Shown here: piece after piece, positions 2,273 through 62,945 of the stretch | Position numbering within the stretch: the first letter of the stretch is position 1 | Layout: each line of letters begins with the position of its first letter | Source of the DNA: Candidatus Cloacimonadales bacterium | GTDB taxonomy: Bacteria; Cloacimonadota; Cloacimonadia; Cloacimonadales; JAIOQZ01 | Assembly: GCA_963665815.1 (NCBI GenBank) | Contig: OY762463.1 | Coordinates: 1,632,001 to 1,696,000, forward strand | Reading direction: 5' to 3' | Length of the DNA stretch: 64,000 nucleotides | The notes under the pieces: generated by a model | Told to the model about the DNA's origin: nothing | Databases searched by the model: none | The model's input: only the letters and a program-made list of their open reading frames with translations | Program-made: the position numbers and the translations under genes

Positions 2273-3301
2273 TTACTTGTTTACTGACTTCTCAGAGAAA
2301 GTTAACTTAACACCTTCCCCACAGTTTCTGCACATTTTTATTGCAGATCTGTTCGTCAGAATGGTATTCCTCATTTTCTGGAATTTTTCGTTCTTAAAAA
2401 TAGATTTTACGGAATTTGTTTTTACATTGCCAACAGGATAATCAATATCTTTGTCGAAACAACAGACTGCCATTTCCCCATTCCAGTTTATCACAGGCTG
2501 ATCCCAGATTCTGCGGCAGCGATTCTTAATACCAAACTTCAACTCAAAATCATCACCTGAAATCTTGTAACGTCTGTATTTGGGGTTTTCCGGTAGAAAA
2601 TTCTTGATGTCATCTTTTTCATAAATCTGAACTGTCTTCAACGAAAGTGAATCTACTCCCAATTCCTTAGCCAGATTACGAATTGACTCTATTTCATGTT
2701 CATTATGTTTCATTACAATAAACTGCCAGAGAATTTTAGGGAATATTGACTTCTTCTTCTTCTTTGCTTCAACAAGCTTCCTGACATTCTCTTTAACCTT
2801 ATCAATTTCACCATTGATGCGGTACTGATTATATGTTTCCTGAGAAGCTCCATCAAGAGATACAATAAGTCTATCAAGTCCTGAATCCACTATTTCCTCA
2901 GCAGGTGGCAGAATGTTAGCATTCGTGGAAACCAATGTATACAGACGCTTAGAGTGTGCATATTTGATCATCTTCACCATGTCTTTATTCAGGAAAGGTT
3001 CTCCCTGATTCCACAAAATCAGCATAAAAGCATATTCGGAAACTTCATCTATCACCTTTTTATACAATTCAAAATCCATGTATCCCTTTGCCCTTTTGAG
3101 GGTTCCGTTTCCGGAAGGACACATAGGACACCGAAGATTACAAATATTGGTCGGTTCAATCATTATAACACCGGGCATTCCCCATACGTATGCCTTTCGG
3201 GTTAAAATCGAAAAACCGTAAGATGCATATTTAAGCAGAGAATTGAACAATCTTTTCCAGGTGAAAATTCTAAAAAAAACATTTATCTTTCTTTTAAGCA
3301 T
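2273..3301 (-). CDS. Radical SAM protein with C-terminal SPASM/twitch-like domain
   Basis: CNLRCPMC motif, GEP and SLDG motifs, C-terminal CRRIW...GEMAVCC...CRNC. Confidence 0.85.
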   Translation of the reverse strand: MLKRKINVFFRIFTWKRLFNSLLKYASYGFSILTRKAYVWGMPGVIMIEPTNICNLRCPMCPSGNGTLKRAKGYMDFELYKKVIDEVSEYAFMLILWNQGEPFLNKDMVKMIKYAHSKRLYTLVSTNANILPPAEEIVDSGLDRLIVSLDGASQETYNQYRINGEIDKVKENVRKLVEAKKKKKSIFPKILWQFIVMKHNEHEIESIRNLAKELGVDSLSLKTVQIYEKDDIKNFLPENPKYRRYKISGDDFELKFGIKNRCRRIWDQPVINWNGEMAVCCFDKDIDYPVGNVKTNSVKSIFKNEKFQKMRNTILTNRSAIKMCRNCGEGVKLTFSEKSVNK

Positions 3302-6280: not shown

Positions 6281-6970
6281 TTATTTTGAGTAATCTCTGA
6301 CTCCGAATATTGCTGAGCCAATCCTGATTATGTTAGCACCTTCTTCAATTGCAATTTCGAAATCCCCGCTCATACCCATCGATAAGTATTTGAACTTAAC
6401 TCCTGGAAGTTTTTCTGCTTCATCATAAAGCTTTTTCAGCTTTCTAAAACATTCCCTGATAATATCTTCATCTGAGATAAACATCCCGATTGTCATCAGA
6501 CCACGAATTCTGATATTTGAGAAACAAGCTGCCTGCTTCAGGAATTCTATTGTTTCATTCGGTTCTATTCCTGATTTTGACGCTTCTCCTGATGTATTTA
6601 CCTGTACCAGTATATCCTGTACAATTCCCATTTCCTGAGCAACATTATTCAGCTTTTTTATTGTAGATAACTTATCGAGAGAATGAATCAGTGTTGGCTT
6701 AAGCTCCATCAGTTTTCTTATTTTGTTAGACTGTAAATGTCCTATGAAATGAAACTCATCTATTTCATCCTGAAGTTCCGGGATCTTTGTCAGAGACTCC
6801 TGAATTTTATTCTCAGCTATGCAGGTTAACCCATTTTTTATACCTTCTCTTATAGTCTCAACATCATGCGTTTTAGTTACTGCAAGCAGTAAAATTTCAT
6901 CTGCTGATCTGTTGCAGGCGTCTGCTGCATCAGCAATTTTTTTCCTTATAAAATCAATTCTTTCTTTCAT
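6281..6970 (-). CDS. yggS: YggS family pyridoxal phosphate homeostasis protein
   Basis: LLAVTK, HFIGHLQSNK, GLMTIG, LSMGMSGDFE and IRIGSAIFG motifs. Confidence 0.95.
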   Translation of the reverse strand: MKERIDFIRKKIADAADACNRSADEILLLAVTKTHDVETIREGIKNGLTCIAENKIQESLTKIPELQDEIDEFHFIGHLQSNKIRKLMELKPTLIHSLDKLSTIKKLNNVAQEMGIVQDILVQVNTSGEASKSGIEPNETIEFLKQAACFSNIRIRGLMTIGMFISDEDIIRECFRKLKKLYDEAEKLPGVKFKYLSMGMSGDFEIAIEEGANIIRIGSAIFGVRDYSK

Positions 6971-7393
6971 TTATATAACTCCACGAGATCTTTGCATAAT
7001 TGGAGTAGTTGACTCGATATTATTTATCCATAGTGAGACTGTTATGTTATAATATTCCATAAGCTCATCTATAGCTTTTAAGTTTACTTTATTATATCAA
7101 AACTGTTTGATTCTGCTATTATGCAAAGCTATCTCCACTTCAAAAAAGTAAAAAGCAGGCGTTCAGACTATGTGTCAAGCTTAATTCATTGATTAGTTAA
7201 TATACACATAAAAATCATGGAATGCAATTGTATTAACGTAATAATATTCTAGAGTGTTACATCACATTTACAGATGTATTACTAATGCCGGCATATTAAA
7301 ACTTGATGAATTGATAATGTCGGCTGTTTTATTATGACAATTTTATTAAATACTCAGTTCAGAACTCATGAAGCAAGCTTAAAACAAACATGT

Positions 7394-8809
7394 TCAATCC
7401 TTTGTAACCTGATTCTTAACATAATATTCCTCAAGTACATGCTGTCCAACTTGCTTAAGTAAAAAAATGTAAACCTTTAGAAGATTTTCAATCTGCTTTC
7501 TGAATTTTAAACATTCATAAATATTGTTTTTAAAACTTCCATCTGAGGCAAAATTGATATAACAGGAAGAACATAAATATCTTGCCCAGCAATTAGCACA
7601 TGTTTTCTCTCTGAACTCAATCCATTTATTAACAATAACTGACATTCCCTGATAATCCAGTCCATCTTCAACAGAACCTATTTTAAAATCATGATCTATC
7701 TTCTCACAAATGTAATATGATCCCTCAGATGAAACAAAAAGCTTCTGATTTCCAGGAACACATGTTTTATAGCTTATGTACTCACCATACTCACGCTTAT
7801 GAATAAAAGAAAGTGAATCCATAAAAATATGATTATCCAAAGACATATCTCCGCTTTTCAGACCTTGCACTAAGTCAAAGATTTCGGAGTTACCTTTTAC
7901 ACTATCCATGTCACTGTTAAGAAAATACTCGGTATAATACTGCTTTCTCTCATCATGTGTTGGATGCATTCTGGATATTCTCAGATTCAATTTAAGATTC
8001 TTTCGTAAATCAACAAGTTTGTTGTATTCATCTAAATTTGTAACAGTAGCCAACAATAGAATATTCTGACTATGCTTATCGATTTTACTTTTGATTAACT
8101 CAATATTTCGCTCTACTATATTGTATGTGAATGTTCCGTTAGCATGGACTCTATGTTTATCATGAATCTCTTTCAACCCATCAAAACTTATTGAAATGTT
8201 AAATGCATGCTTTACTAAATATTCAATGTTCTCTGAATCAAGTAGATATCCATTTGTTGTTATTGCATATCTAATGTTAAGATTTAAAGTGCTGCAATAC
8301 TGTACAATCTTTTCTATCAGATCCATATTAAGTAAAGGTTCTCCCCCATAAAATCCTACAAGAAGGTCTTTTCTACCGTTCTTTAAGCAAATCTCGTATA
8401 CTTTTTGAATCGCAGCAATCGCTATTTCATAGGTCATTACTTTGCTGGAATGTTTTCTCAATTTATTTTCTTCGTAAGAACCACCATAAATACAATAAGA
8501 ACATCTGAAATTGCAGTTTTCTGTAATACAAAGAGTTATCGCTTCAGGGCAAATACTCTCAGCATTTACTTCAGGTTTAAAGTACACTGCATCCTTATCA
8601 TCGATACTACTTAACAGAGTTTGAAAATCATTGTAAATTTCTCTCGCATTCCTGAATATCCCTATATATCTTTCGACATAGTCTTCCCCAGACATTGATA
8701 TCAAGCTATTCAATGTTTTATACACCACTTCATTAATTCTGACCATTTGTCCTGTTACATCAATATAAATGTAAAACTCATTCTCAAACTTGAATTTCTT
8801 AATATTCAT
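7394..8809 (-). CDS. Radical SAM/SPASM peptide maturase (cluster 1)
   Basis: TENCNFRCSYCIY, FYGGEPLL, ITTNG; SPASM cysteines CVPG..LFV..G..YICEK and CANCWARYLCSSC..C; N-terminal ~80 aa RRE-like extension. Confidence 0.9.
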   Translation of the reverse strand: MNIKKFKFENEFYIYIDVTGQMVRINEVVYKTLNSLISMSGEDYVERYIGIFRNAREIYNDFQTLLSSIDDKDAVYFKPEVNAESICPEAITLCITENCNFRCSYCIYGGSYEENKLRKHSSKVMTYEIAIAAIQKVYEICLKNGRKDLLVGFYGGEPLLNMDLIEKIVQYCSTLNLNIRYAITTNGYLLDSENIEYLVKHAFNISISFDGLKEIHDKHRVHANGTFTYNIVERNIELIKSKIDKHSQNILLLATVTNLDEYNKLVDLRKNLKLNLRISRMHPTHDERKQYYTEYFLNSDMDSVKGNSEIFDLVQGLKSGDMSLDNHIFMDSLSFIHKREYGEYISYKTCVPGNQKLFVSSEGSYYICEKIDHDFKIGSVEDGLDYQGMSVIVNKWIEFREKTCANCWARYLCSSCYINFASDGSFKNNIYECLKFRKQIENLLKVYIFLLKQVGQHVLEEYYVKNQVTKD

Positions 8810-9789
8810 TACCGGCTCAACCTGAATTTATAATAATTCTGTGAACCAGAATCTTGAATATGAACAAATTTGTCATCCACAATCATTGTATTCATAACAG
8901 TATAAATATTATCGGGAATCTTCCAGAATTGAATAAGATTAAAATTACTGTCATATTTACAGAGATACTCTCGAATCTCGAAAGCAGCTTTTATCTGCGA
9001 AGAACTTGAGTTTTTGTAATCTATTTTTGCATCAGTATTTCCCATAAACGTATGAATCACAAATATCTCATTATCAGAAGAATCGATGTTCAACACATAA
9101 GACTTCTCTGTTGGAAGATTGTCTGAAAACAAATTCTCAACTGAAATTAGCTCGTTTTTAACTTCATCATACATATAGATGTTTGATTTGTACTGAGTAA
9201 ATGCTAAATAATATTTTCCATTAGATTTCAACAATGAATTTTCTCTTTCCGTTCTTTCTATACCTATGTCATCGAATAACTTACTAAGGTCAATCCTTTG
9301 CTTTACTGAATCATTTTCTATGTTGAAGTACTTGCAGCCTGGGAGAGCATAGAATTGGGAGAAAGACACTTTGCCTTCATCCAGATATAAATCTGAAGGC
9401 AATACAGCTTTCATTGAAGAAAGAAATTCACCTTCTATGCTAAAGGTTGAGATTCTATTACTACCAATATCCGATACCAGTAAATTATCTCCAACAACAA
9501 GTATTTTCCCATTTAAAGACAATTCTCCGGGACCTTTACCTTCTTTACCAATCTTGTGAATAAATGAATAATCCTCTGAACTATATACATATACTGAGTG
9601 AGATGTATCATAGAAGAAAATCTTCCCGTCACTATATTCTACATCGAAAAATCCCATATTCATTTCACAATTTTCCTGCCATCCTAATGAATCTGCAACG
9701 GTTAAAGAACCTTCTTTCAATCGTGAGCTACATCCGAAAATTAACAGAGATAACAAAATAGATAAGACAATAATTCTTTCTTTAAACAT
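8809..9789 (-). CDS. 6-bladed beta-propeller (NHL/TolB-like) lipoprotein (cluster 1)
   Basis: Lipobox LIFGC; IGKEGKGPGEL and LLVSD..SNRISTFS..GEFL blade motifs; stop overlaps the rSAM start. Confidence 0.8.
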   Translation of the reverse strand: MFKERIIVLSILLSLLIFGCSSRLKEGSLTVADSLGWQENCEMNMGFFDVEYSDGKIFFYDTSHSVYVYSSEDYSFIHKIGKEGKGPGELSLNGKILVVGDNLLVSDIGSNRISTFSIEGEFLSSMKAVLPSDLYLDEGKVSFSQFYALPGCKYFNIENDSVKQRIDLSKLFDDIGIERTERENSLLKSNGKYYLAFTQYKSNIYMYDEVKNELISVENLFSDNLPTEKSYVLNIDSSDNEIFVIHTFMGNTDAKIDYKNSSSSQIKAAFEIREYLCKYDSNFNLIQFWKIPDNIYTVMNTMIVDDKFVHIQDSGSQNYYKFRLSR

Positions 9790-9832
9790 ATAAACTCCAA
9801 TTCATAGTGAGGGAATTATCTATTATTTATTG

Positions 9833-10003
9833 TTATTTAGAATTTGAAGATTGACCACCAAGAAGGTCGTCAATGTAAGCATTTGAAGAGTGAACACTTG
9901 ATGCATGTGCAACGTCGCATTCACAGACTGATTTTCTGCCTTTAACTTCGTTTTCATCACTTGTTGTAACAGGGCTAGAAACTACATCATAAGTACTTGT
10001 CAT
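9833..10003 (-). CDS. Putative RiPP precursor peptide, 56 aa: MTSTYDVVSSPVTTSDENEVKGRKSVCECDVAHASSVHSSNAYIDDLLGGQSSNSK
   Basis: Translated by hand (below the ORF-track cutoff). Strong SD TAAGGAG 6 nt before ATG 10003, TAA at 9835-9833, CxC motif, first gene before the propeller and rSAM. Confidence 0.8.
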   Translation of the reverse strand: MTSTYDVVSSPVTTSDENEVKGRKSVCECDVAHASSVHSSNAYIDDLLGGQSSNSK

Positions 10004-10104
10004 ACATTTCTCCTTAGATATTATAATTAGTTGTTGATAATTCCCTCATTTCCATACATAATTGCCTTTTGAGCATGTATGACAATTATCAAACACCATA
10101 AGAC

Positions 10105-10133
10105 AATAAAAAGTATTTTTTTTTACATGTCAA
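10105..10133 (-). promoter_or_regulatory. Putative sigma70 promoter of RiPP cluster 1
   Basis: TTGACA (10133-10128), 17-nt spacer, TTTATT. Confidence 0.5.
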
Positions 10134-10362
10134 TTTTATTTTCTTCAGAATATTTCTTAATGGTAAATTTAATTTTCCCCTTTCATTTTCATAGATTTTA
10201 AAAACAAGCATGATATTTTACATGAAAAATATCAGGACTGGAATTACGGTACCCTAATTAAAGAATAATTACCTCAAATGTATATTTCACACTTATAGAA
10301 GCAAATAAAACTACACTAACTCAAAAACTCGTATTACTGAAGTAGAGTAGATAAAATCCCAC

Positions 10363-10400
10363 AACAGGAGTTCAGAAATTTTTCGGACTCCTGTTTTTTT
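10363..10400. terminator. Intrinsic terminator-like hairpin, possibly bidirectional
   Basis: AACAGGAGT...ACTCCTGTT stem with a T-run on +, 10 nt beyond the stop of the minus-strand gene at 10410. Confidence 0.6.
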
Positions 10401-10409
10401 CTCGAAAAC

Positions 10410-11177
10410 TTACCCAAAATGCTTTGTAATTGCCTGAACACCTTTCTGCAGGATTTCTCTCAGTTGTAATTGTTTTTCGGAATCCACTTCTCCTGTCCAT
10501 TCATCCATAAAAGTTTTCTTAAACTCAATTGCCAGACACATTGCGTTATCGGGATAAAAATGATTAATCCAACGAGGGAAATATCCGCCGGGGAACTTCA
10601 CATTTACCCTGGCATCAATCTTATGGTCATCATAAGTCTCTTCCAGCATAGCTTGCTGGAATTCTTTCACGATAGGAAACCACTTCTCATCAAGATTGCT
10701 TGTTCCAATAATTATTTCAGGGTTCTTTTCAGGATCATCATATTCCTGCCCCGGTCCTAACCTGTGATGATTATAAGAATGTATATCCAGCACCAGAAAT
10801 TTACCGAACCTTTTCCTCATCTCATCCAGATGATACTTGATTCCTTTATAGAAATCGTCATATATCGCAAGGCTTGCCTGTACCTGTTCTTCTGAGGGTT
10901 GGACTTTTCTGACAGTCATACCCCAGGCATCCTCCGGTTTTATATAGACAGCTCTGTCTCGAGGTCTGTTTAGATCGGTTTCAAAACGACTGAACTCGGC
11001 AATAACCGTATTCTTGCATATTTCTGTAAAAAAAGCTGTAAACGGATCTTCTTCTCTGAGCTGATCAGCATCGGAAATACCCAGATTAGCTTTTGTTAAT
11101 TCGTTGAGTTTATGGCCGTTATGCACGGCAGTACATATAAAGGGTTCCTGATATGTAAATGTTGATATTGCAGACAT
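10410..11177 (-). CDS. N-formylglutamate amidohydrolase family protein
   Basis: AVHNGH, REEDPFT, SRF..DLNR, LDIHSY, FPGGY and LAIEF motifs. Confidence 0.88.
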   Translation of the reverse strand: MSAISTFTYQEPFICTAVHNGHKLNELTKANLGISDADQLREEDPFTAFFTEICKNTVIAEFSRFETDLNRPRDRAVYIKPEDAWGMTVRKVQPSEEQVQASLAIYDDFYKGIKYHLDEMRKRFGKFLVLDIHSYNHHRLGPGQEYDDPEKNPEIIIGTSNLDEKWFPIVKEFQQAMLEETYDDHKIDARVNVKFPGGYFPRWINHFYPDNAMCLAIEFKKTFMDEWTGEVDSEKQLQLREILQKGVQAITKHFG

Positions 11178-11649: not shown

Positions 11650-12357
11650 CTAATCAATATCCATTACTTCCACAGCAAATTGAGTATGACCATTATGGCA
11701 ATACTTGTCTATTAAGTATACTTTATCGCCCTGTTGATTTGCATATGCATAAACATAATCCGGATATTCTACCATTCCTGATTCCTGCCCTGTCTTAACC
11801 AGAAATTTACTTATAGGTTCACTTTCAATTAAATCATATGTATGATAATCATAAACATAGAAACCGGGACGAAAGTATCCTCCGAAACTTAGACTGGTAA
11901 TTAATATTTTACCGACATCCCCAGTACAGTCTAAGCTATATATACCCGGATTACTTATCATACCAACCTGTTGCATATCTGTTTCTTCTGAATCTGATAA
12001 GCTTATCACGTATCCACCAGGTAAAATAGCTTTTTCCCCGGACTCAGGAATATACATTTTGTTCAAGTCAGAGGGAAACTCACCATGATACTGCCATTCA
12101 TATAGGAATTTTGCAGGACCATTACTGATGTCATATTTATTCAGGTGTCGAGGAGAATATATTGTACTGAATGAGTAAATACTGTTTCCCGAAGGATGAA
12201 TATACAGATTTGATCTGGTTCTGAATTCAAAATCACTCAAAACAACCTGTTCACTTGCCAGGTCTATGGACATTAACAAATCATCCTCTCCATCATCTGC
12301 AGAAGCGTAAGCCCATCCATTTGAGGACATTACAAGCCTCCATGGTTTTAAGGGCAA
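11650..12357 (-). pseudogene. Probable 5'-truncated beta-propeller-like protein fragment
   Basis: 235-aa frame with a TTG start, no clear SD or signal peptide, in-frame TGA 15 codons upstream; beta-rich, propeller-like sequence. Confidence 0.4.
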
Positions 12358-12832: not shown

Positions 12833-12908
12833 TGGGGTGGCTGATGGGACTCGAACCCACAACGCCTGGAACCACAATCCAGTGCTCTACCATTGAACTA
12901 CAACCACC
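12833..12908 (-). tRNA. tRNA-His (GTG), G-1 and CCA encoded
   Basis: GGTGGTTGTAGTTCAATGGTAGAGCACTGGATTGTGGTTCCAG...GGTTCGAGTCCCATCAGCCACCCCA. Confidence 0.97.
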
Positions 12909-12917
12909 ATTGAAAAA

Positions 12918-12994
<77 letters not shown>

Positions 12995-13035
12995 GCTTAT
13001 CAAAAAAAACTGCTCGCCTTTAACGACAAGCTCTA

Positions 13036-13112
13036 TGGTAGCGGCGCAGGGACTCGAACCCCGGACACTCGGATTATGATTCCGATGCTCTAACCAACTG
13101 AGCTACGCCGCC
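13036..13112 (-). tRNA. tRNA with CAT anticodon, probably elongator Met
   Basis: GGCGGCGTAGCTCAG...TCGGAATCATAATCCGA...CGCCGCTACCA; lacks initiator signatures. Ile2 is not fully excluded. Confidence 0.9.
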
Positions 13113-13126
13113 GCGTATTTAATAAA

Positions 13127-13203
<77 letters not shown>

Positions 13204-19612: not shown

Positions 19613-21553
19613 TCACTTCAGCATTATACACTTTTTAAGGATTGATTCTCCTTTTGCAGGTGTAATCTTATAGAAGTACACTCCTGAACCTACGCCATTA
19701 CCATTATTATCATCTCCATTCCAAATAACTTCATGTGGTCCTTTTCTCATTGATTTATTGAGAAGATTCTTAACCTTTTGTCCCTTGATATTGTAGATAC
19801 TTACATTGATATTCTGTTCTTCGGTAATTGAGAAACTTATTGTCGTTCTGGGGTTAAATGGATTAGGATAGTTACAGACATTATTAACAAGTTCAAGCGT
19901 AACATCATCGTTATCTATAGCACCATCCAGGGCTATTGCATCCAGAATAACTATATCATTATCGTAGCCTATTTTGTGCCAGGCAATTCGGATATGCTCA
20001 CCGGTGTAAGAAGCCAAATCTACTGCAACGTGTTCCCAGTCAAGAGTACTGAGGTTGTCTTCTTCGGCATGCCAGACTTCAGTCCAGTTATCACCATCGT
20101 CAGTTGTAACTTTTACGGTGTAGTCTGTATGATCCATTAATCCTGAATTATAGCATGTCCAGAATTCCAGATACCCGTTCAGTCGTTCATCAATAATAAG
20201 AGTTGGAGAAATCAGCCATTCATCCTGATAATCACTTAAATCCACGTAAGGGCAAAATGCTGAGTATATATTGAAAGGATCGTATTCAGAGAATGAATAC
20301 CCCTGAATGTTACCAGGTTGCCAGGTGAAACTGTTATGAGTGTTATCCAACATCCACCATTTAGGCGGGAACCTTACCTGATCGAAATCCTGTCTGAAGT
20401 TAGTGTTCACTATTCTCGGAACAGCAATGATTCTTGAAATTTCTACCGTATCAATTGTTGAATAAAGTGTAATTCTGATCTCTTCCTGAGAATTCTGCTG
20501 AGGATTGGAAGCGTAGATAGCCCATTTACAACCACTTATTTCACCAGTGGAAATCATTTCAGGGCTCATAGTTTGAGTAGCAGTGGAATTAGCAAATCTC
20601 AAATTCTCAGACAATTCCATAACGGCATACATTGTATCAGCCGGCACATTATGATTATTCCTTGCAAACATCTGAACTGTTACAGACGCAGGAAGAATGT
20701 CTTCGTAGTTCTGTTCGAAATTATCCAACGTTGAAACAGAGAGATCAATACTATCATTTAAAGTAGTAATATTCCCGAGTCCAATATACTGCCCGAATGT
20801 ATTTTTATCATCTACATCATAAGTTTCAACATTCCATCTCATAAACAGTCCGGGAGAAGTGATAGGTACAACCTGATCCGTTTCCATATCCCAGACAACA
20901 TTAGAAAGAGTATCTGAGTTACCGAAAATCACCATACTTGGAGCAGTTGCCTCAAGACCGTTGGTGATTGTCTGAAATACTGTACCATCCGTAATGATAT
21001 CATCATTTTCGTACATCTGTATAACCTGAGGAATCACATGACCGGAAAGTTCAAGAGTAGAACTGATCTGTTGCCCGTTCCCCCAGAACGATCTCGTCCC
21101 GGTACCGGGACATTGCGGAGCATAAAAATGAGCAATTCCTATATCATGTATAATCTGGTCCTGATTATCAATCTCATATCTTAGAGTAACAAAATGCGAG
21201 TTAATGAAATCTTGAAACTCCAGAATCTGTTTGATTTCCACATCCCCAATCTCATATACAGTTTCTATCCGATCCGAATATTCGCTCACACTATAGGGAA
21301 TCAATGCAGTAACGTTTGTCAATGCATCGGAATTGGAGTAAAAATTATCATCGAGAGATACAATAAAATGTGTATTAAATGTATCAGGATATCCGGAAAT
21401 AACAGAGTTACCTGAGGCATCCCCTATGTTAAACATACCCGTTGTATCATCTACAACAACCGTGAAGTGCGAATTATTGATTGAATAATCTTCTGCTGCC
21501 AGACTACAGAGCAGACCTAATACAGCAACAAGGATAAATACCGGCTTATACAT
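19613..21553 (-). CDS. Secreted protein with cleaved-adhesin/choice-of-anchor-J-like domain and FlgD-Ig C-terminal sorting domain
   Basis: Signal peptide; QDEWLISP...VDLASYTGEHIRIAW; C-terminal NYPNPFNPRTTISF...IYNIKGQKV...W.G.D..G..V.SGVYFY. Confidence 0.8.
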   Translation of the reverse strand: MYKPVFILVAVLGLLCSLAAEDYSINNSHFTVVVDDTTGMFNIGDASGNSVISGYPDTFNTHFIVSLDDNFYSNSDALTNVTALIPYSVSEYSDRIETVYEIGDVEIKQILEFQDFINSHFVTLRYEIDNQDQIIHDIGIAHFYAPQCPGTGTRSFWGNGQQISSTLELSGHVIPQVIQMYENDDIITDGTVFQTITNGLEATAPSMVIFGNSDTLSNVVWDMETDQVVPITSPGLFMRWNVETYDVDDKNTFGQYIGLGNITTLNDSIDLSVSTLDNFEQNYEDILPASVTVQMFARNNHNVPADTMYAVMELSENLRFANSTATQTMSPEMISTGEISGCKWAIYASNPQQNSQEEIRITLYSTIDTVEISRIIAVPRIVNTNFRQDFDQVRFPPKWWMLDNTHNSFTWQPGNIQGYSFSEYDPFNIYSAFCPYVDLSDYQDEWLISPTLIIDERLNGYLEFWTCYNSGLMDHTDYTVKVTTDDGDNWTEVWHAEEDNLSTLDWEHVAVDLASYTGEHIRIAWHKIGYDNDIVILDAIALDGAIDNDDVTLELVNNVCNYPNPFNPRTTISFSITEEQNINVSIYNIKGQKVKNLLNKSMRKGPHEVIWNGDDNNGNGVGSGVYFYKITPAKGESILKKCIMLK

Positions 21554-26216: not shown

Positions 26217-26840
26217 ATGGACGAAGTAATCGGACAAGAATTAGAGCAGAGTCCTGAGGAGAAACTTCAGGCATTATTTAGTCTCAAGGCAAAACTTGAG
26301 GATGATTTTGTAGCTATTGGACAGCTTTTGTCAGAAGTAAAAAGAAAAGGGCTGTATAAAATTAAAGGTTATAACAAATTTAAGGATTTCATCGAACAGG
26401 AATATAATATAGCCGGAACATTTGCCTCAAAGCTGATTTCCATATATGATCTTTTTGTTGATGAACTTGATATAGATGAATCTTCTCTGAAAAACATCGG
26501 TGTTGATAAACTTAACATGATAAAGCCGCTTGTTAAAAACAAAACTTATTCGGAATCAGAAGAATGGCTTAACAAAGCTAATGAGCTTTCTGCTACTGAT
26601 CTGAGAGAAGATATCAAGGAAGTTCGTAAGCAAACCCAATCCAAGTCAATGAAAGAAGTTCTCATTGACCAGTTCTACGAAACAATGGTAACATTCTTCA
26701 ATTGCTCCAGAAAAGAGCTAAATTATAAACTGGCTATTTATTTTCAGGACACTGACCTTGAACAGGTTAAGAATGAAATTAAAATAAAACAGAGAAATTA
26801 TGAAAAGGAAAGCGAAGGGGAGGGTCCCGGCATTAGTTGA
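26217..26840 (+). CDS. Hypothetical protein, DUF3102/plasmid-partition (PF49)-like DNA-binding candidate
   Basis: F.AIG.LL.EVK...LY...GY..FKDFIE.EY.....A.KLI pattern. Confidence 0.5.
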   Translation: MDEVIGQELEQSPEEKLQALFSLKAKLEDDFVAIGQLLSEVKRKGLYKIKGYNKFKDFIEQEYNIAGTFASKLISIYDLFVDELDIDESSLKNIGVDKLNMIKPLVKNKTYSESEEWLNKANELSATDLREDIKEVRKQTQSKSMKEVLIDQFYETMVTFFNCSRKELNYKLAIYFQDTDLEQVKNEIKIKQRNYEKESEGEGPGIS

Positions 26841-26881
26841 TAAGAATCAGATCTAAACAAAAAACTGATAATGAGGTAAAA

Positions 26882-28441
26882 ATGCGCAAATTAAAAATAT
26901 TATGGGTAGATGATGAAATAGACTTACTGGAACCGTTTGTAATATTCCTGCAGGATAAAGGATATCACGTGCAGAAGGTGTCTAATGGAACAGATGCTGT
27001 TGCAATGGTTCTTAACGAGAAATTCGATCTGGTGCTTCTCGATGAGATGATGCCCGGAATGGACGGACTTGCTACTCTTCAGGAGATAAAACAAATTAAT
27101 CCTAATCTGGCTGTTGTTATGGTTACCAAATCCGAAGAAGAAGGATTGATGGATAAAGCAATTGCCCGTCAGATCTCTGACTATCTGATTAAACCTATTA
27201 ATCCTAATCAGATTATTATGACAGTGAAGAAAATTTTCCAGGCTGATGAAATAAGACACAATCAGATTGGTGAAGAATACTCCAGATATATTGCTCAACT
27301 GAATCAATCTCTCTTCCAGAGTCCGGACTGGAATGACTGGAAAAACATATATAATGAAATGTGTAAATGGGATGTTGTTATCGATGAAATAAACGATCAG
27401 GCCCTTGCTCACACTCATTTTCTGGAAAAACGTAATTGTAATACCGAGTTCACAAACTACATATCATCGAACTATTCTGACTGGTTGCAGAGTGATGAGA
27501 GACCGACCTTCTCATTTGACGTACTTTCCGAAACTGTAACCCCGCTTTTTGATGAAGGTAAACCGGTTTACTTCATAATTCTGGATTGCATGAGACTGGA
27601 CCAGTATCTCGCAATCGAACCTTTCCTTCAGGAATTGTTTGATGTTGACCTTGATCTGTATTACTCTATTCTCCCAACTGCAACTCCATATTCGAGAAAC
27701 TCGCTGTTCAGCGGACTTCTTCCAATTGATATTGCAAGAATGTTCCCGCAATACTGGAATGACTCCTCCGACAATGAAAACAGTCGTAACAGAAACGAAC
27801 ATCAGCTTCTTGATGCTCATATTAACGATTTGGGATACAATATCAATCCAACTTCCAAGTATATAAAAATATTCAATATGGAAGAAGCAAATTTTGTACT
27901 TAGAAAAATCAATTCCTGGTCTAAAGAAAAGCTGGTTGTTCTGGTATATAACTTCCTGGATTTACTGGCTCACCATAGATCTAAAGACAGTATACTGAAA
28001 GAAGCAATTCCGGATGAAGAAGCACTGAGAGCATTCACAAAACACTGGTTCCTGCATTCAGCATTTTACGATGCACTGAAACAAATTGCTGAACAGGATG
28101 CAACTGTTGTTATTACGACTGATCACGGTTCAATTCGTGTAAACAGAGCTACTCAGGCTATTGGTGATAAAGATACAACAATCACTGTACGTTACAAGCA
28201 GGGAAGAAATCTGACATGTAATGACAGACATGCTATCTACCTGAAAGATCCGAAAGATTTCGGATTACCATCTAACAACATTGTAGATAACTACATATTT
28301 GCCAAAGATGATTACTACTTTGTATATCCAAATTCATTCCACCAGTATCAGAGACAGTATAACGGAACATTCCAGCATGGTGGTATATCCATGGAGGAAA
28401 TGCTCCTGCCATTGGCTGTCTGCCGATCTAAAAAGAAATAA
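26882..28441 (+). CDS. porX: PorX-type response regulator (REC + PglZ alkaline-phosphatase-like domain)
   Basis: ILWVDDEIDLL, LDEMMPGMDGL, ILPTATPYSRN, TTDHG, FQHGGISMEEM; ATG 26882 follows GAGGT. Confidence 0.88.
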   Translation: MRKLKILWVDDEIDLLEPFVIFLQDKGYHVQKVSNGTDAVAMVLNEKFDLVLLDEMMPGMDGLATLQEIKQINPNLAVVMVTKSEEEGLMDKAIARQISDYLIKPINPNQIIMTVKKIFQADEIRHNQIGEEYSRYIAQLNQSLFQSPDWNDWKNIYNEMCKWDVVIDEINDQALAHTHFLEKRNCNTEFTNYISSNYSDWLQSDERPTFSFDVLSETVTPLFDEGKPVYFIILDCMRLDQYLAIEPFLQELFDVDLDLYYSILPTATPYSRNSLFSGLLPIDIARMFPQYWNDSSDNENSRNRNEHQLLDAHINDLGYNINPTSKYIKIFNMEEANFVLRKINSWSKEKLVVLVYNFLDLLAHHRSKDSILKEAIPDEEALRAFTKHWFLHSAFYDALKQIAEQDATVVITTDHGSIRVNRATQAIGDKDTTITVRYKQGRNLTCNDRHAIYLKDPKDFGLPSNNIVDNYIFAKDDYYFVYPNSFHQYQRQYNGTFQHGGISMEEMLLPLAVCRSKKK

Positions 28442-31412: not shown

Positions 31413-33143
31413 TCATCCATGATTGAGCATATTGAAGTACTCTCCCTTCACTTCCATTAATTCGCCGTGACTTCCCTCTTCAGATATTGCTCCATTACTC
31501 ATAACACATATCTTGTCACATTCTTTTATTGTAGACAACCTGTGTGCGACAATTATCACAATAATATCATCCGGTAATTTGTGCAGTGTTTCCATTATGC
31601 TTTTTTCACTGATTGGATCAATGTTTGATGTTGCTTCATCCAATAATAGAATTTTAGGATTCTTTATCAGAGCTCTTGCCAGACTTATCCTTTGTTTTTG
31701 CCCAATTGAAAGACTGTTTCCTTTTACTCCGACATGCGTATCATATTTATCCGGCAAGTTCATTATTTGAGCATGGACAGATGCCATTTTACAAACAGCT
31801 ACAACATCTTCATATCCTGCTGACATGTTCGCAAATCGTATATTATCCATAATACTGCCATCAATTAGAACTGGTTCCTGATCGACAATTCCGATATATT
31901 TTCTTAATGCTACAATTTGACTATCACTTAGCTTATCACCATTTATATAAATCTCACCTGATATTGACTTGTGTAATCCTGATAATATTTTCAATAAAGT
32001 TGTTTTTCCACATCCGGACACTCCCACAATACCTATTTTCTCTCCCTGATTAATCTCAATATTCACATTTTCCAATATAGGCTTGTCTTCTTTGTAAAAA
32101 AATTTCAATTCTCTGATTGAAAGCCTTTCAATTACAGATATGTTATAGTTGTAATCTATTACTTCACTCGGGAATGTCATTATTTCTTTAACTCGCTTCA
32201 GGGAAACCATTGCCGTTTGCAATCTTACATTTAAATCAATAAGATTCCTTGCAGGATTGAACAAATACCTGATAAAAGAATTGAATGCAATCATAGAACC
32301 AATTGTCAAACGGTCGTTAATAATCTCATATCCACCATACCCAATAATTATTAATGGAATCAGACCAATTATCATATTGGAAGAAACCTGGTAGATACTG
32401 GTTATCTTTGTAAGTTTTACAGATTCTCTATATGCTGACTTCGATGAAGAGAAAAACTGGTAAATACTGAATCGGCTTCGAAGAAACTGTTTTATCAGAC
32501 GAATAAGTGATAAACACTGCTCCAACGTAGAAACGCTTTTTGCCATTACTTCGTATGTAACCTCTGTTTGCGCTTTAATTCTCTTTCCGAAGAACACGGA
32601 TAACCATACATATGGAATTATTAGAATTACTGAGAATAATGCAAGCTTGAAATGAATTGTAAAAATCACTGATAATCCTGCAATTAAATACAGAAGATCC
32701 TTGAGTACCGCTACAAATGTTTCTGCGAAAAAAGATCTCAGACCTTCAGAATCACTATTTATCCTGGAAAGAAGATATCCTGAACTGTACTTGTTAATTG
32801 TACTCAGAGGAGCATTATTAAGCCTTTCTAAAAGTGCAACTTTAATATCCAATATGATTTTATCATTTACCCGTTTCAACATTAAAGAATGAATATAGGC
32901 TACCGCATTCTGAAATAATAGTATTGATAAAGTTATACCAACTAATACTATTAGTTCCGTTAAGTTCTTCCCGGGTAATGTAACATCAATAATTCTTCTT
33001 GTTATTAATGGTGTAGGCAAGATCAGTAGAGAAAGGATAATGATCAGACAGCAGACAAGCAGAATACTCTTCATGTATTTTTTATAGAAGTTCAGATATA
33101 AAAATCTGATAAAATTCAAGTTTTCATTCTTTGCTATTTTCAT
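31413..33143 (-). CDS. ABC exporter (TMD+NBD), no C39 peptidase domain (cluster 2)
   Basis: N-terminal TM helices, GVSGCGKTT, LSIGQKQR, LLLDEATS, VAHRLST; 576 aa. Confidence 0.92.
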   Translation of the reverse strand: MKIAKNENLNFIRFLYLNFYKKYMKSILLVCCLIIILSLLILPTPLITRRIIDVTLPGKNLTELIVLVGITLSILLFQNAVAYIHSLMLKRVNDKIILDIKVALLERLNNAPLSTINKYSSGYLLSRINSDSEGLRSFFAETFVAVLKDLLYLIAGLSVIFTIHFKLALFSVILIIPYVWLSVFFGKRIKAQTEVTYEVMAKSVSTLEQCLSLIRLIKQFLRSRFSIYQFFSSSKSAYRESVKLTKITSIYQVSSNMIIGLIPLIIIGYGGYEIINDRLTIGSMIAFNSFIRYLFNPARNLIDLNVRLQTAMVSLKRVKEIMTFPSEVIDYNYNISVIERLSIRELKFFYKEDKPILENVNIEINQGEKIGIVGVSGCGKTTLLKILSGLHKSISGEIYINGDKLSDSQIVALRKYIGIVDQEPVLIDGSIMDNIRFANMSAGYEDVVAVCKMASVHAQIMNLPDKYDTHVGVKGNSLSIGQKQRISLARALIKNPKILLLDEATSNIDPISEKSIMETLHKLPDDIIVIIVAHRLSTIKECDKICVMSNGAISEEGSHGELMEVKGEYFNMLNHG

Positions 33144-33161
33144 TGTCAGTGTATTCAGAAA

Positions 33162-34556
33162 TTACGAAGTTTCACTCTGGTTGAAGTAATTATCGATGCT
33201 TTCCTTACCTACATGGTCAAGAAGTCTGACATATAGTTGAAGCATACCTTCAATTTCACTTTTCTTTTCTGAGCATATTGAATTACTTGGAGATATATTT
33301 TCTGATCTCACGAAACTCACATAGCATAAATCGCAAAGATGAGCTCCCCAGCACTTGCTGCAGTTCTTCCCTTTGAAATAAAGCCAATCTCTTTCAATTT
33401 CATTTTTTCTGGCAGAAATTATTCCTTTATCAAGATCTCCTATGGGCATTGCGTGATCAATTTTCTCACACATATGAAAATTTCCTTCGGGAGAGACAAA
33501 CAACATTGCATTTCCCGGAGAACAGGCATGATAATTGACATCACTTCCTGAGTTTCTGAAATGTATCCTCTTTATACTTGTAATCAGATCCAGGTCTCCA
33601 CTCAAAAGCTTGCGATTTTTAAATCTATCTATAAATCCTGCTCTTCTAGCTCCGGTAATATCATCAATTCTACTTACTTCATCTTCATCAAAAGATTCAA
33701 TTTTTTCAGCATCATCGCTATCCCAAATCATAGATACATGTGAAAAAATTGGATTATCCTGTTGCAGATCAAAAAGTTCAACGAAAATTCCGGGAGTTGC
33801 CGCAGTAGCTACGAAATTAACATATTCCCTGTAATAATCAGGATACCTGTCTGAAATAGGCTTCAAGTTGTTCATTATTCTATCATAGGTCGGTTCACCA
33901 TTCAAAGCGATTCTGTATTTGTCATGAATTTCTTTTGTCCCATCTACACTTACAAATAATCTGATCTTGTTGGCTAAAAAGAAATCGATATGCTCTTCTG
34001 ACATTGCATAACCATTAGTAGTAATTGAAAATGTTATTTCGGACGGAAGCTCTTTTAAGTTTTTCACAATGTATTTCATAATGTCGAAATTTAATAGTGG
34101 TTCTCCTCCATAAAATCCGATATTCAGGTTCTCTTCCACATTGTAGTTTTCGTCAATCCATCTGATAAACTTGTCTGCTATCGTATAAGACATTTTCTTT
34201 GTTGAACTTGTTCTTGTGTAAGAATAGCTGTCCGAGTAGATACAGTACTTGCATTTTAAATTGCAGGCTTCAGTTAACCCAATAACAATTTTGAAAGGAT
34301 TTTTCTTCCTGTTTTCGTTCTTGATAGGCAAAAATGAGAATCCATTGCTTTCAGCTCTGTTTTTCATGTAATTCCGGAATTTATCGAAAACTTTCTCTAT
34401 TTCTGCATTTTCAGCATACTTATCAATATACTCATCTCTTGACATGCCCAAAAGATCATAAAATGTATTATACATGAATTCATTGATCTTAATAATGTTC
34501 GAGTTTAAAGAATCATAAAAGTAGACACCACTTACAGCTCTAAACTTTTTAAGCAC
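33162..34556 (-). CDS. Radical SAM/SPASM peptide maturase (cluster 2)
   Basis: TEACNLKCKYCIY, FYGGEPLL, ITTNG; CSPG..LFV..G.FHMCEK and CSKCWGAHLCDLC..C; RRE-like N-terminus. Confidence 0.9.
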   Translation of the reverse strand: MLKKFRAVSGVYFYDSLNSNIIKINEFMYNTFYDLLGMSRDEYIDKYAENAEIEKVFDKFRNYMKNRAESNGFSFLPIKNENRKKNPFKIVIGLTEACNLKCKYCIYSDSYSYTRTSSTKKMSYTIADKFIRWIDENYNVEENLNIGFYGGEPLLNFDIMKYIVKNLKELPSEITFSITTNGYAMSEEHIDFFLANKIRLFVSVDGTKEIHDKYRIALNGEPTYDRIMNNLKPISDRYPDYYREYVNFVATAATPGIFVELFDLQQDNPIFSHVSMIWDSDDAEKIESFDEDEVSRIDDITGARRAGFIDRFKNRKLLSGDLDLITSIKRIHFRNSGSDVNYHACSPGNAMLFVSPEGNFHMCEKIDHAMPIGDLDKGIISARKNEIERDWLYFKGKNCSKCWGAHLCDLCYVSFVRSENISPSNSICSEKKSEIEGMLQLYVRLLDHVGKESIDNYFNQSETS

Positions 34557-34573
34557 TTCATCCTCCAGTATAT

Positions 34574-35596
34574 TTATGATCCCTTCACTTCGGATTTCGT
34601 TAACTTAAATATTATTCCATTATAGTTAGATACCAGAAATACTTTTCCATTTGAGGACAGTATTTCTCCTGACAAAGTCATCATATCTCCGGGTAGCTCA
34701 CATGAAGATTTCAATTCTCCTGTGATTGAGTATTCGCAAACAAACTCTCTTATATCATAAAAATGCTTAATATCTTCTATCTTTGTCAGTGATGAATTTT
34801 TCTTCTGGGCTGGATCTACACCATATGCTCTTTCAACAACGTAAAATCTGTCGTTCATCAGCACTGCATTACTTGTTTTTGAGTATTCCGGAACAGCATC
34901 CCTGTTTACTGATGATGAGAACTGAATTTTCTCATTATTCAAATCTTTGATACACCCAACTCTATTTATTGGTACTCCTATTAGTGAATTCTCATATTTT
35001 ATAATATCTATATGTTTATTTTCTTCCTTTAAATCATTATCCGAGCAGAATTGATCCAACTTCCTCACAGTTTTAAACTCTCCATTATTATATACCGTTA
35101 ACTTATAATCAGGTGCAAAATGAGCAGTTGTAACATATATGCTGTCTTCATAATTGTATACTTTACCAATCGGGTGGAATTTCTCAGCTTTAAGAAAATC
35201 ACCTTGCTTAGAAATCCATTGTATTCTGGAATTAGCAAAATCACCTACAACTATATCACCATTTTTATCAAATGTGAATGAGTTAGGATAAAGAAATTCT
35301 CCGGGACCTCTGCCCTTACTTCCAAATTTTCTCAGAAATTTCAAACTGTTAATCTCGTAAACATAAAAAACTGCATTATCAATATCCAATACGTACAGTT
35401 CTTCACCATCAATATTGTGAATATTGTTAGCTCCAAAAGTAAAGTTTTCATCATCCTGCCATCCCAATGAATCAGCTACTACTAATACAGATTTTGAACC
35501 ACTTTCACCACTCTTGTCCTGCCTGACACAAGAAACAGAGTTCAAAATTATAAGTGTTAATACTGTGAACGTTAAACTTGCTATTCCTTTCCTCAT
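34574..35596 (-). CDS. 6-bladed beta-propeller lipoprotein (cluster 2)
   Basis: Lipobox-like NSVSC; FGSKGRGPGEFLYP; IVVGD..NSRIQW...G.FL. Confidence 0.8.
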   Translation of the reverse strand: MRKGIASLTFTVLTLIILNSVSCVRQDKSGESGSKSVLVVADSLGWQDDENFTFGANNIHNIDGEELYVLDIDNAVFYVYEINSLKFLRKFGSKGRGPGEFLYPNSFTFDKNGDIVVGDFANSRIQWISKQGDFLKAEKFHPIGKVYNYEDSIYVTTAHFAPDYKLTVYNNGEFKTVRKLDQFCSDNDLKEENKHIDIIKYENSLIGVPINRVGCIKDLNNEKIQFSSSVNRDAVPEYSKTSNAVLMNDRFYVVERAYGVDPAQKKNSSLTKIEDIKHFYDIREFVCEYSITGELKSSCELPGDMMTLSGEILSSNGKVFLVSNYNGIIFKLTKSEVKGS

Positions 35597-35669
35597 ATAT
35601 TCTCCTAAAATTAAGCTATCCGATGTTTTCCCTACTTATAAAATACAGCCCTTCAACTTAATTATCTTA

Positions 35670-35888
35670 CTATGATATACCTGAACTTGTATTGTTGCTG
35701 GATGAATTTACCAGTTTTCTGGCAGCATTCTGTTTAGCGCATCTTCTAGTTGATGCATCTCCAGCAGGATATGGTAAATTCTCACAAGTTTGACATTCCT
35801 GTGTGCTTCCACTGCCTGTGTCTTTATCAAGTGTAGAAGCTGTACTCACTATTTCCATTGAACATAAGTCAATTACATTATTATCCAT
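35670..35888 (-). CDS. Putative RiPP precursor peptide, 72 aa
   Basis: SD GAGGAG before ATG; four Cys including CQTC; Ser/Thr/Asn-rich; first gene of the propeller-rSAM-ABC operon. Confidence 0.82.
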   Translation of the reverse strand: MDNNVIDLCSMEIVSTASTLDKDTGSGSTQECQTCENLPYPAGDASTRRCAKQNAARKLVNSSSNNTSSGIS

Positions 35889-36150
35889 AATTTCTCCTCA
35901 TAATTTTATTACATCAGATAGCTTTTATTGTTTATTGTTTTGTTTAGTATTTTCTATCTTGCTAAGTAAAAAATATGTCGAAGGGGAAAACAAATGAGAT
36001 CCCTCTTACCTCTACATATATAAATCTTTTCTAAAGAACTTTTTGATATGTGTCAAGTTTTTTGTTTATACAAACTCATTTATGAATATTAAATTCATTC
36101 TAAAGAGATTAATGATTATCATATCAATTCCTGCTCACCATTATTTCCAC

Positions 36151-36637
36151 CTTCCCTCACAAAAAGCGGAAGTTGGTGAATGTTCTCCAAACCTTCACCG
36201 AGTCATAATAGCACAATCTTTCAGTTGTAAGTAGCCGATCTTATTCTTTTTTACTGTATAATAAATTTTCCCGTGAAGAAATCCTGAAGCCTTGGAAGGA
36301 TTTCAGGTGAGATTTATGGTTCCAGCTTGCTGGAAATACATTTAAAAAAGATGTCATTTCTTTTGCTTCGTTTTCTTTAGTCATATAAAGAAAATGAAGG
36401 ACTGTATCAATACTCTATCTCTTTTTGTTCTCTTCCCTCACAAAAAGCAGGAGTTGGTGAATGTTTTCCAAACCTTCACCGAGTCATTAAGTCAAAGAAA
36501 TTACAGAAAATCAATACTCTATCTCTTTTTGTTCTCTTTCCTCACAAAAAGCAGAAGTTGGTGAATGTTTTCCAAACCTTCACCGAGTCATTAAGTCAAA
36601 GAAATCACAGAAAATCAATACTCTATCTCTTTTTGTT
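36151..36637. repeat. 104-bp tandem repeat (2.2 units, 36406-36637) plus a separate 56-bp core copy (36151-36206)
   Basis: ATCAATACTCTATCTCTTTTTGTT starts at 36406, 36510 and 36614. The core CCTCACAAAAAGC...GTTGGTGAA-N13-TTCACCGAGTCAT occurs three times. Confidence 0.92.
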
Positions 36638-62697: not shown

Positions 62698-62945
62698 TTT
62701 TCCTCCAATATATATTGATTATCTTTAAATTCAAAAATTTCGGAAACATCTGCATCATTAAGTACAGATTTAAGTTCTTTTTTTTTTATGTACAGCAGTA
62801 AAGAAAATCCACACTCCGAGCTGATCTCACGCGGTGTTGGTATCATTTTCAGTTTAAAGCCACCGGATTTAAGTATACTTTCACATTGCATTGCTTTATG
62901 CACAGTCGTAAAGGTCAGTAGAAAGGTGTTTACATCAACAGTCAT
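62694..62945 (-). CDS. DUF3343 protein
   Basis: F.T.H.AM..E..LK; IPTPREISSECG. Confidence 0.85.
   Translation of the reverse strand: MTVDVNTFLLTFTTVHKAMQCESILKSGGFKLKMIPTPREISSECGFSLLLYIKKKELKSVLNDADVSEIFEFKDNQYILEEK

Follow-up and report, generated by a model that had tools for sequence, protein, structure and literature searches.

Whether a 56-codon open reading frame (ORF) that precedes the genes for a beta-propeller lipoprotein and a radical S-adenosylmethionine (SAM) enzyme encodes the precursor of a ribosomally made, post-translationally modified peptide (RiPP), and what the enzyme and the propeller would do with such a peptide, are the questions raised by a locus of Candidatus Cloacimonadales bacterium (assembly GCA_963665815.1, contig OY762463.1). 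The locus, cluster 1, lies in the 64,000-nucleotide stretch of this contig that was analysed as a whole (the window). At a probability of roughly 0.6, we read the small ORF (pep1), the propeller gene and the enzyme gene (rSAM1) as a RiPP-type operon that makes a thioether-cross-linked peptide from an orphan precursor, with an exported propeller as its partner. A preliminary description made from the DNA letters had given the coordinates, the Shine-Dalgarno sequence and the translation of the small ORF, and these were confirmed from the sequence. The three ORFs occupy 7394-10003, all on the minus strand:

10016-10010, minus strand: Shine-Dalgarno sequence TAAGGAG, 6 nucleotides 5' of the pep1 ATG, read from the sequence
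9833-10003, minus strand: pep1, ORF for a putative precursor of 56 residues; translation as in the preliminary description
8809-9789, minus strand: propeller lipoprotein (propeller 1), 326 residues, NHL-type six-bladed, DUF5128/BF3164-like, with a lipobox-like Cys21
7394-8809, minus strand: rSAM1, 471 residues, peptide maturase with a RiPP recognition element (RRE), a radical SAM domain and a seven-Cys SPASM domain

The gap between pep1 and the propeller gene is 43 nucleotides, and the propeller stop codon and the rSAM1 start codon share base 8809 (TAATG), in agreement with the translational coupling proposed earlier. The upstream neighbour, a formylglutamate-amidohydrolase-family gene (10410-11177), has a hairpin at its end, and about 420 nucleotides separate rSAM1 from a YggS-family gene downstream. 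Because of the tight packing, the upstream hairpin and the downstream gap, pep1, the propeller gene and rSAM1 were taken as one unit. Scanning 6900-10500 for promoters and terminators was uninformative, with 21 promoter-like sites where 20.9 were expected and a single terminator-like site, which lies on the opposite strand. The G+C content of cluster 1 is 31-33%, compared with 35-41% in most of the surrounding window.

Codon usage argues that pep1 is a gene. Log-odds were trained on the long genes of the window, with cluster 1 and a second, paralogous cluster (cluster 2, below) excluded. The pep1 ORF scored 0.171 per codon in its own frame and negative in the five other frames. Pieces of real genes of 56 codons scored 0.201 +/- 0.081 (n = 266) and spurious ORFs of 40-100 residues, taken from wrong frames of real genes, scored -0.092 +/- 0.080 (n = 153), with none of the 153 reaching the value for pep1. 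Shine-Dalgarno motifs (GGAG, GAGG or AGGA at -18 to -4) precede 29 of 50 genes in the window, compared with 8.8% of random 15-mers. The flanks of cluster 1 contained no further small, Cys-containing ORF with a comparable signal. The peptide has two Cys, in the core C27-E-C29-D30, and a Ser/Asn-rich tail, and its gene heads the operon, as does the small ORF of cluster 2 (pep2). Taken with the complex model described below, the codon usage indicates that pep1 is, with high probability, a genuine gene and the substrate of rSAM1, which was also the view taken in the preliminary description.

The enzyme is of a known kind. The rSAM1 protein scored 65.0 bits against Pfam PF04055 (Radical_SAM; gathering score 29.5), which places it in the radical SAM superfamily, and contains the radical SAM motif CX3CX2C (C99, C103 and C106) and seven SPASM Cys (C350, C368, C404-X2-C407-X5-C413-X2-C416 and C433). 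Across 43 homologues none of these ten Cys varies, and this invariance, together with the alignment to the SPASM region of CteB, identifies a seven-Cys SPASM domain. RiPP maturases lead the 25 best NCBIfam matches (CcpM, GG_samocin, lachnocin, PapB, RumMC, QhpD and SCIFF), and a few non-peptide enzymes, including the anaerobic sulfatase-maturating enzyme (anSME), MoaA and viperin, rank lower. The best curated family was CcpM (TIGR04068; 226.7 bits, cut-off 500), which aligned over nearly the full length, as did GG_samocin_CFB (TIGR04148; 155.9 bits, cut-off 300). Scores were lower for PapB (NF047865; 142.3 bits, cut-off 340), QhpD (TIGR03906; 129.1 bits, cut-off 453; rSAM1 residues 56-454, E 1.8e-37), the SCIFF maturase (TIGR03974; 127.4 bits, cut-off 425) and anSME (TIGR03942; 87.8 bits, cut-off 349). 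In the comparison with TIGRFAM maturase families that had been proposed as a check, peptide maturases thus rank at the top, and no curated cut-off is reached. The enzyme is therefore one of the peptide cross-linkers built of an RRE, a radical SAM and a SPASM domain (RRE-rSAM-SPASM), yet a member of no curated family.

Structure comparison placed rSAM1 beside CteB, the SCIFF maturase and ranthipeptide thioether synthase, which has the same domain order (RRE, radical SAM, seven-Cys SPASM) and was both the best structural and the best profile match. In the AlphaFold 2 (AF2) model (pLDDT, for predicted local distance difference test, 84.3), strands at 3-8, 11-16 and 21-25 and then helices at 27-70 are predicted to form the winged-helix shape of an RRE, with a pLDDT of about 90. 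The top Foldseek matches in the PDB were CteB entries 5WGG and 5WHY (E 3e-21, 469-493 aligned columns, 21-23% identity), followed by TigE, anSME, ChlB and SuiB. A profile of the rSAM1 family aligned with CteB over positions 5-470 (E 5e-66), with its N-terminus on CteB residues 6-90; the match to TigE had an E of 3e-32, and anSME aligned only from position 112, so the N-terminal RRE is an addition relative to anSME. Because CteB aligns from end to end, anSME aligns only from position 112 and the predicted fold is that of an RRE, the N-terminal domain was assigned as a homologue of the CteB RRE and the enzyme as CteB-like rather than anSME-like. The RRE assignment is further consistent with the leader strand that is modelled on residues 19-26. 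The RRE and seven-Cys SPASM domain claimed earlier thus hold, and rSAM1 neither lacks an RRE nor groups with anSME, either of which the preliminary description had named as counting against its proposal.

A single complex prediction was made for rSAM1 (with alignment) and pep1, in three runs. The complex scored 0.67 (runs 0.66-0.68), compared with 0.02 for the best control, although part of this score may be likeness to the RRE-leader complexes in the PDB (CteB, SuiB and ChlB), since the modelled geometry is the same as that already known from solved complexes of this kind. In calibration, 58 of 80 complexes with solved structures attained the mark used for such models, as did 2 of 110 mismatched pairs. 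The partner pLDDT was 46-48 and contact agreement was at least 48%. In the model, pep1 residues 3-13 contact rSAM1 at the third RRE strand (residues 19-26) and at a helix (residues 57-65), and pep1 residues 23 and 27 (Cys27) contact rSAM1 residues 337-350 and the SPASM cysteines C368 and C416. The model places a leader at the N-terminus of pep1 and the C27-E-C29-D30 core in the active site, the same kind of leader-on-RRE, Cys-at-auxiliary-cluster geometry as in CteB. We regard it as support for the reading, not as proof.

In the mechanism that we favor, pep1 would be translated in the cytoplasm, and residues 3-13 would add a strand to the third beta strand of the RRE against the flanking helix. 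The C27-E-C29-D30 core would be delivered to the radical SAM/SPASM site, with Cys27 by the auxiliary-cluster cysteines. By analogy with CteB, PapB, QhpD and CrpC, rSAM1 would cleave SAM reductively, abstract hydrogen from an acceptor residue and join the acceptor to a Cys sulfur. The product would have one or two intramolecular thioethers, of the ranthionine type (sulfur bound to C-beta/gamma) or the sactionine type (sulfur bound to C-alpha), from Cys27 and/or Cys29; Asp30 and Glu28 are plausible acceptors by comparison with PapB, QhpD and CrpC. The residues C27-x-x-D30 fit the pattern C-X-X-Q/D, and motifs of this pattern were interpreted as ranthionine sites in CrpA, the substrate of CrpC (PMC13692751, in the portion available). 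The same portion of that paper states that seven-Cys SPASM domains are thought to keep one iron of AuxI free and able to bind a substrate Cys. CrpC of Methanococcus voltae (TIGR04463) is, according to the accessible text, likewise an RRE-rSAM-SPASM enzyme with seven SPASM Cys; however, rSAM1 scores 68 bits against that family (cut-off 525), and CrpA is described there as a 28.8-kDa repeat protein (PMC13692751), unlike the 56-residue pep1.

The precursor itself fits none of the described groups. NCBIfam contained no family that matched pep1 at E up to 0.1, including TIGR04149, the GG-type precursor family that goes with GG_samocin_CFB, and the earlier statement that the peptide matches no described precursor family was upheld in NCBIfam, Pfam, the protein searches and the ESM Atlas. 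The peptide is not a six-Cys SCIFF peptide, and we know of no SCIFF cluster with a propeller lipoprotein. CcpM and GG_samocin_CFB are the highest-scoring curated families, and relatives of rSAM1 adjoin C-x-C-x-C peptides, whereas pep1 has a single C-x-C and rSAM1 misses both cut-offs. The part of PMC9062424 that was available lists CcpM as no more than a 'previously annotated' cluster and gives no chemistry.

Relatives of the enzyme in other genomes indicate the usual kind of substrate. From 185,579 species genomes, a pattern scan retrieved 545 relatives, of which the best 80 were kept (24-34% identity to the rSAM); the genome of the window is not among these 80 loci. The best match other than rSAM1 itself among 5.8 billion clustered proteins was 33% identical. 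In 29 of the 80 loci, the rSAM gene had on its own strand, no more than 1.8 kb upstream or 0.7 kb downstream, an ORF of 25-110 residues with a C-x-C-x-C motif; in the opposite-strand control this was so in 3 of 80. Given this excess, alternating-Cys peptides appear to be the usual substrates of this enzyme group, and pep1, with its single C-x-C, would be a minimal version of them. No stop-to-stop ORF of the 80 loci matched pep1 in a phmmer search.

Of all the relatives found, the one nearest to cluster 1 lies within this window. A phmmer search of the three cluster 1 proteins against the ORFs of the window identified cluster 2 (31413-35888), which consists of four genes:

35670-35888, minus strand: pep2, putative precursor of 72 residues with a GAGGAG Shine-Dalgarno sequence, four Cys, two of which form a CxxC flanked by Glu, and a tail rich in Ser and Asn
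34574-35596, minus strand: propeller 2, 340 residues, PF17170 at 35.3 bits plus one NHL repeat
33162-34556, minus strand: rSAM2, RRE-rSAM-SPASM enzyme of 464 residues, NCBIfam CcpM at 223.8 bits (cut-off 500)
31413-33143, minus strand: ATP-binding cassette (ABC) exporter at the cluster end, with a transmembrane domain (ABC_membrane) and a nucleotide-binding domain (ABC_tran), without a peptidase domain

The two enzymes are 31% identical over their full length (E 2e-80), and rSAM2 outscores all 927 database matches of rSAM1. The propellers are 25% identical (E 4e-17) and share VADSLGWQ directly after the lipobox. The codon log-odds of pep2 were 0.115, a value reached by 1 of the 153 spurious ORFs. 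The two peptides are alike in position, size, charge and composition: Ser, Thr and Asn make up 19 of 56 residues in pep1 and 26 of 72 in pep2, each has eight Asp and Glu residues, and neither contains Trp. A leader motif common to both was considered and dropped, as no alignment rose above shuffled sequences. Cluster 2 was taken as a diverged paralogue of cluster 1, 24 kb away, and as the best available comparator. Its exporter, which aligns to peptidase-containing exporters only from about position 134-155 of the latter onward, is a possible shared exporter. The double-glycine leader end suggested earlier for pep1 is not supported: neither cluster encodes a C39 peptidase, and the sole exporter has no peptidase domain. 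Three copies of a 104-nucleotide direct repeat lie between cluster 2 and gcvPA (36125-36613). Two are in tandem at 97% identity and one is at 63%; each contains a 19-nucleotide core that in the window occurs only in the repeats (3 matches, 0 expected), and no Rfam family matched them at the gathering score.

The second protein of the trio is a member of a large propeller family. Propeller 1 scored 30.6 bits against PF17170 (DUF5128, '6-bladed beta-propeller'; gathering score 22.9), and its AF2 model (pLDDT 78) is all-beta, with six-bladed NHL domains as the best Foldseek matches (TM-scores 0.65-0.75) and BF0058 (4RAA) and BamB among the further ones. A profile of eight propellers matched the NHL domain of TRIM2 (E 1e-33) and 4RAA, an exported protein of Bacteroides (E 9e-11). 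The nearest ESM Atlas clusters were named '6-bladed beta-propeller' and 'BF3164 family lipoprotein', both from Bacteroidota, and these DUF5128/BF3164-family lipoproteins thus share Pfam family, profile, fold and Atlas names with propeller 1; the families are very large and without an assigned function. The N-terminus of propeller 1 (MFKER..LLIFGC) has the look of a lipoprotein signal, with Lys/Arg residues and a hydrophobic segment that ends in the lipobox-like IFGC. A similar sequence pattern is present in propeller 2 and in P0123, a homologue of propeller 1 encoded on a 446-kb contig and 53% identical to it; the other homologues were fragments only. The motif IRE-[YF]-[LV]-C-[EK]-Y is common to three close propellers and lost in distant ones. 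Judged from the sequences, there is no sign of an active site in the propeller. A match to the amidating lyase (PAL) domain of PAM was weak (E 0.002), and this function was rejected as unsupported.

Propellers adjoin the rSAM gene in 4 of the 80 loci: L007 (two copies), L016, L066 and L077 (hidden Markov model, HMM, E 2e-8 to 5e-3). The HMM of eight sequences found no further propellers in the 80 loci. The preliminary description had called the gene arrangement typical; with propellers in only these four loci, the lipoprotein is on the contrary an unusual component. PF17170 was passed by two of the five locus propellers (L066 and the first L007 copy), and the others were weaker. Every locus propeller has an N-terminal hydrophobic segment; those of L077, of L016 and of the second copy in L007 resemble a signal or a lipobox. 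A small Cys peptide adjoins the rSAM in each of these loci, although in L007 several small Cys-containing ORFs are scattered. In L066 (186-908), from a Eubacteriales metagenome-assembled genome, four consecutive small ORFs with C-x-C-x-C-x-C cores precede the rSAM, a DUF5128 propeller and an ABC exporter, which makes this locus a multi-precursor version of the same architecture. In a quick maximum-likelihood tree of 82 rows, with Shimodaira-Hasegawa-like approximate likelihood ratio test (SH-aLRT) values as the only support measure, rSAM1 and rSAM2 are sisters (98), and five of the six propeller-linked enzymes fall in one clade of 20 rows (98). The propeller-linked label changes four times on the tree, compared with 5.9 times in shuffles, and 3 of 500 shuffles were as low. 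The trio of small Cys peptide, propeller and CteB-type enzyme therefore recurs, and in cluster 1 its genes are intact.

Three of the propeller loci, from Aminicenantes and an unclassified bacterium, also contain a SPASM-only protein that is fused to or follows the rSAM (L007 4413-6551, L077 3751-4686 and L016 6929-7738). These proteins resemble TIGR04193, the 'grasp-with-spasm' maturase, at 88-100 bits (cut-off 175). An insertion sequence (IS)-type transposase lies between the SPASM-only protein and the propeller in L016.

A helper role for the propeller in the radical SAM step itself can be set aside, since rSAM1 would work in the cytoplasm and the propeller carries an apparent export signal. 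The modified peptide would instead be exported, with the ABC exporter of cluster 2 as the only candidate in the window. Because an apparent signal or lipobox is present in every propeller copy and propellers recur beside one enzyme clade, we suggest that the peptide would meet the membrane-anchored NHL propeller outside the cytoplasm. The propeller would then be a binding partner (for immunity, retention or presentation) and not an enzyme. In the open-access literature that was searched, DUF5128/NHL propeller lipoproteins were nowhere described as recurring partners of radical SAM peptide maturases, and a paper on RiPP mining in Bacteroidales (PMC10352776) mentions neither propellers nor lipoproteins nor TIGR04148. 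In the available parts of the open-access literature on radical SAM RiPP precursors with beta-propellers, the sole propeller mentioned was QhpB.

Several observations weigh against the reading of cluster 1 as a thioether RiPP operon with a propeller partner, in addition to the part that likeness to known geometry may have in the complex score. The reading lacks support from homologues of pep1: a word-based protein search returned only pep1 itself, an exhaustive phmmer search of 1.84 billion representatives returned pep1 and P0128 without a true homologue, and the ESM Atlas gave no usable match. P0128, a vertebrate-looking protein of 2775 residues with repeated immunoglobulin-like domains that matched residues 18-39 seven times, was rejected as a chance, repeat-inflated match. 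Nor do pep1 and pep2 resemble each other in sequence, as BLASTP gave no alignment and a Smith-Waterman score of 25 was matched by 2666 of 5000 shuffles. The peptide has only two Cys, in contrast to the Cys-rich sequences of most related precursors. Every curated NCBIfam cut-off lies above the score of the enzyme, which also falls below the gathering score of the Pfam SPASM family (PF13186; 16.4 bits, gathering score 21.5), and genes for a protease and an exporter are absent from cluster 1. For the propeller there is a homologue at 53% identity (P0123), but the protein search gave no rSAM above 33%; the trio may not be conserved as a unit, or the rSAM may have been missed by the word-based search or through incomplete data. 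Among the eight propellers, only the initiator Met and a structural G-x-G-P-G are invariant, and the role given to the propeller is one that we purely infer.

These points bear differently on the alternatives. Chemistry other than thioether formation on the same substrate, such as C-C or C-O crosslinking, epimerisation or a different radical modification, would suit an enzyme below every curated cut-off and a peptide with two Cys, and SuiB, TigE and ChlB, which have the same fold and domains, do other chemistry. We nevertheless consider it unlikely, as CteB is closer by profile than TigE by more than thirty orders of magnitude in E, the seven SPASM Cys are invariant, Cys motifs dominate the precursors of the relatives (29 of 80 loci, control 3 of 80) and Cys27 is modelled at the SPASM cysteines. 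A further possibility is that, once exported, the cross-linked peptide is no free product but serves the propeller as a ligand or as a small, stable subunit. The model for this is quinohemoprotein amine dehydrogenase, in which QhpD forms Cys-to-Asp/Glu thioethers (PMC7876137, accessible portion) and the thioether-linked gamma subunit QhpC sits with the beta-propeller subunit QhpB (PMC7876137, PMC8172795, accessible portions). As far as those texts go, the gene sets run parallel: a small, leader-bearing peptide with Cys and Asp/Glu, a radical SAM/SPASM cross-linker, an exported beta-propeller and an ABC exporter, the last in cluster 2 and without a peptidase. The QhpD family model also covers most of rSAM1, and the propeller gene, closely coupled to that of the enzyme, recurs with the enzyme's clade. 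On the other hand, the QhpD score is far below its cut-off, the lack of Trp in pep1 and pep2 makes a tryptophylquinone impossible, the haem subunit, a QhpE-like protease and QhpG are encoded in neither cluster, and the propeller is a six-bladed, putatively lipid-anchored protein of the NHL type. A QhpC-like fate of pep1 is thus doubtful, somewhat more so than a different chemistry. The same doubt applies to its most specific form, a two-part extracytoplasmic module in which thioether-stapled pep1 would be docked permanently on the propeller, extending QhpC/QhpB-like logic beyond amine dehydrogenases.

The remaining alternatives deny pep1 its role. The enzyme might instead act, ahead of Sec export, on the propeller or some other protein, in the way that anSME modifies sulfatases, with the small ORF incidental. 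The overlap of the propeller and rSAM genes and the Cys motif shared by the three close propellers would agree with this, and CrpA, in the accessible text of PMC13692751, is a known protein substrate of an RRE-rSAM-SPASM enzyme. That Cys motif, however, is lost in the distant propellers, the anSME score is about a quarter of its cut-off, small Cys peptides also stand by the rSAM in L066, L077, L007 and L016, and pep1 has a strong Shine-Dalgarno sequence, a coding signal and a high-scoring model at the RRE and active site; a protein substrate is therefore improbable. Slightly less credible still, and placed last by us, is that the small ORF is a chance or unrelated gene in a degenerate or silent remnant. 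The failure to find a pep1 homologue anywhere searched, the low G+C content, which fits a recently acquired and possibly decaying island, and the missing exporter and protease would be explained in this way. Yet all three ORFs and all catalytic Cys are intact, the codon usage of pep1 is within the range of real genes, and cluster 2 has the same layout.

If confirmed, the thioether reading of cluster 1 would add to the thioether RiPPs a precursor family without sequence relatives, from a bacterium of the FCB group, and would link radical SAM peptide maturation with an exported propeller lipoprotein of the NHL/DUF5128 kind. A docking module, if true, would give the large DUF5128/BF3164 propeller families a first function. 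The two diverged copies in one genome and the four distant loci form a comparative set for the role of the propeller as immunity factor, retention factor, receptor or partner subunit. The surprise is moderate, cluster 1 being one among very many uncharacterised rSAM-SPASM clusters.

Other features of the window were recorded. Four consecutive tRNA genes (His-GTG, Arg-TCT, Met and Met; 12833-13203, minus strand) lie 3 kb from cluster 1, and beside them, in a stretch of low G+C content, is an ORF of 235 residues without a family match (11650-12357); the two may indicate a site of integration. A third radical SAM/SPASM protein (2273-3301, minus strand; 342 residues) has no RRE and adjoins a BatA/VWA protein. 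Its best match was TIGR04317, a tungsten-cofactor oxidoreductase maturase (122 bits, cut-off 380), and it is probably unrelated to the peptide cluster. On the minus strand at 62101-63981, a YedF-type selenium-metabolism protein is encoded beside a cysteine desulfurase that also matches the selenocysteine lyase SclA (301 bits, cut-off 525), which hints at selenium handling. Two proteins, one with a C-terminal sorting domain for type IX secretion (19613-21553) and the other a full-length PorX response regulator (26837-28441; 684 bits), put the organism in the FCB group, notwithstanding the Shine-Dalgarno motifs of 29 of its 50 genes in the window.

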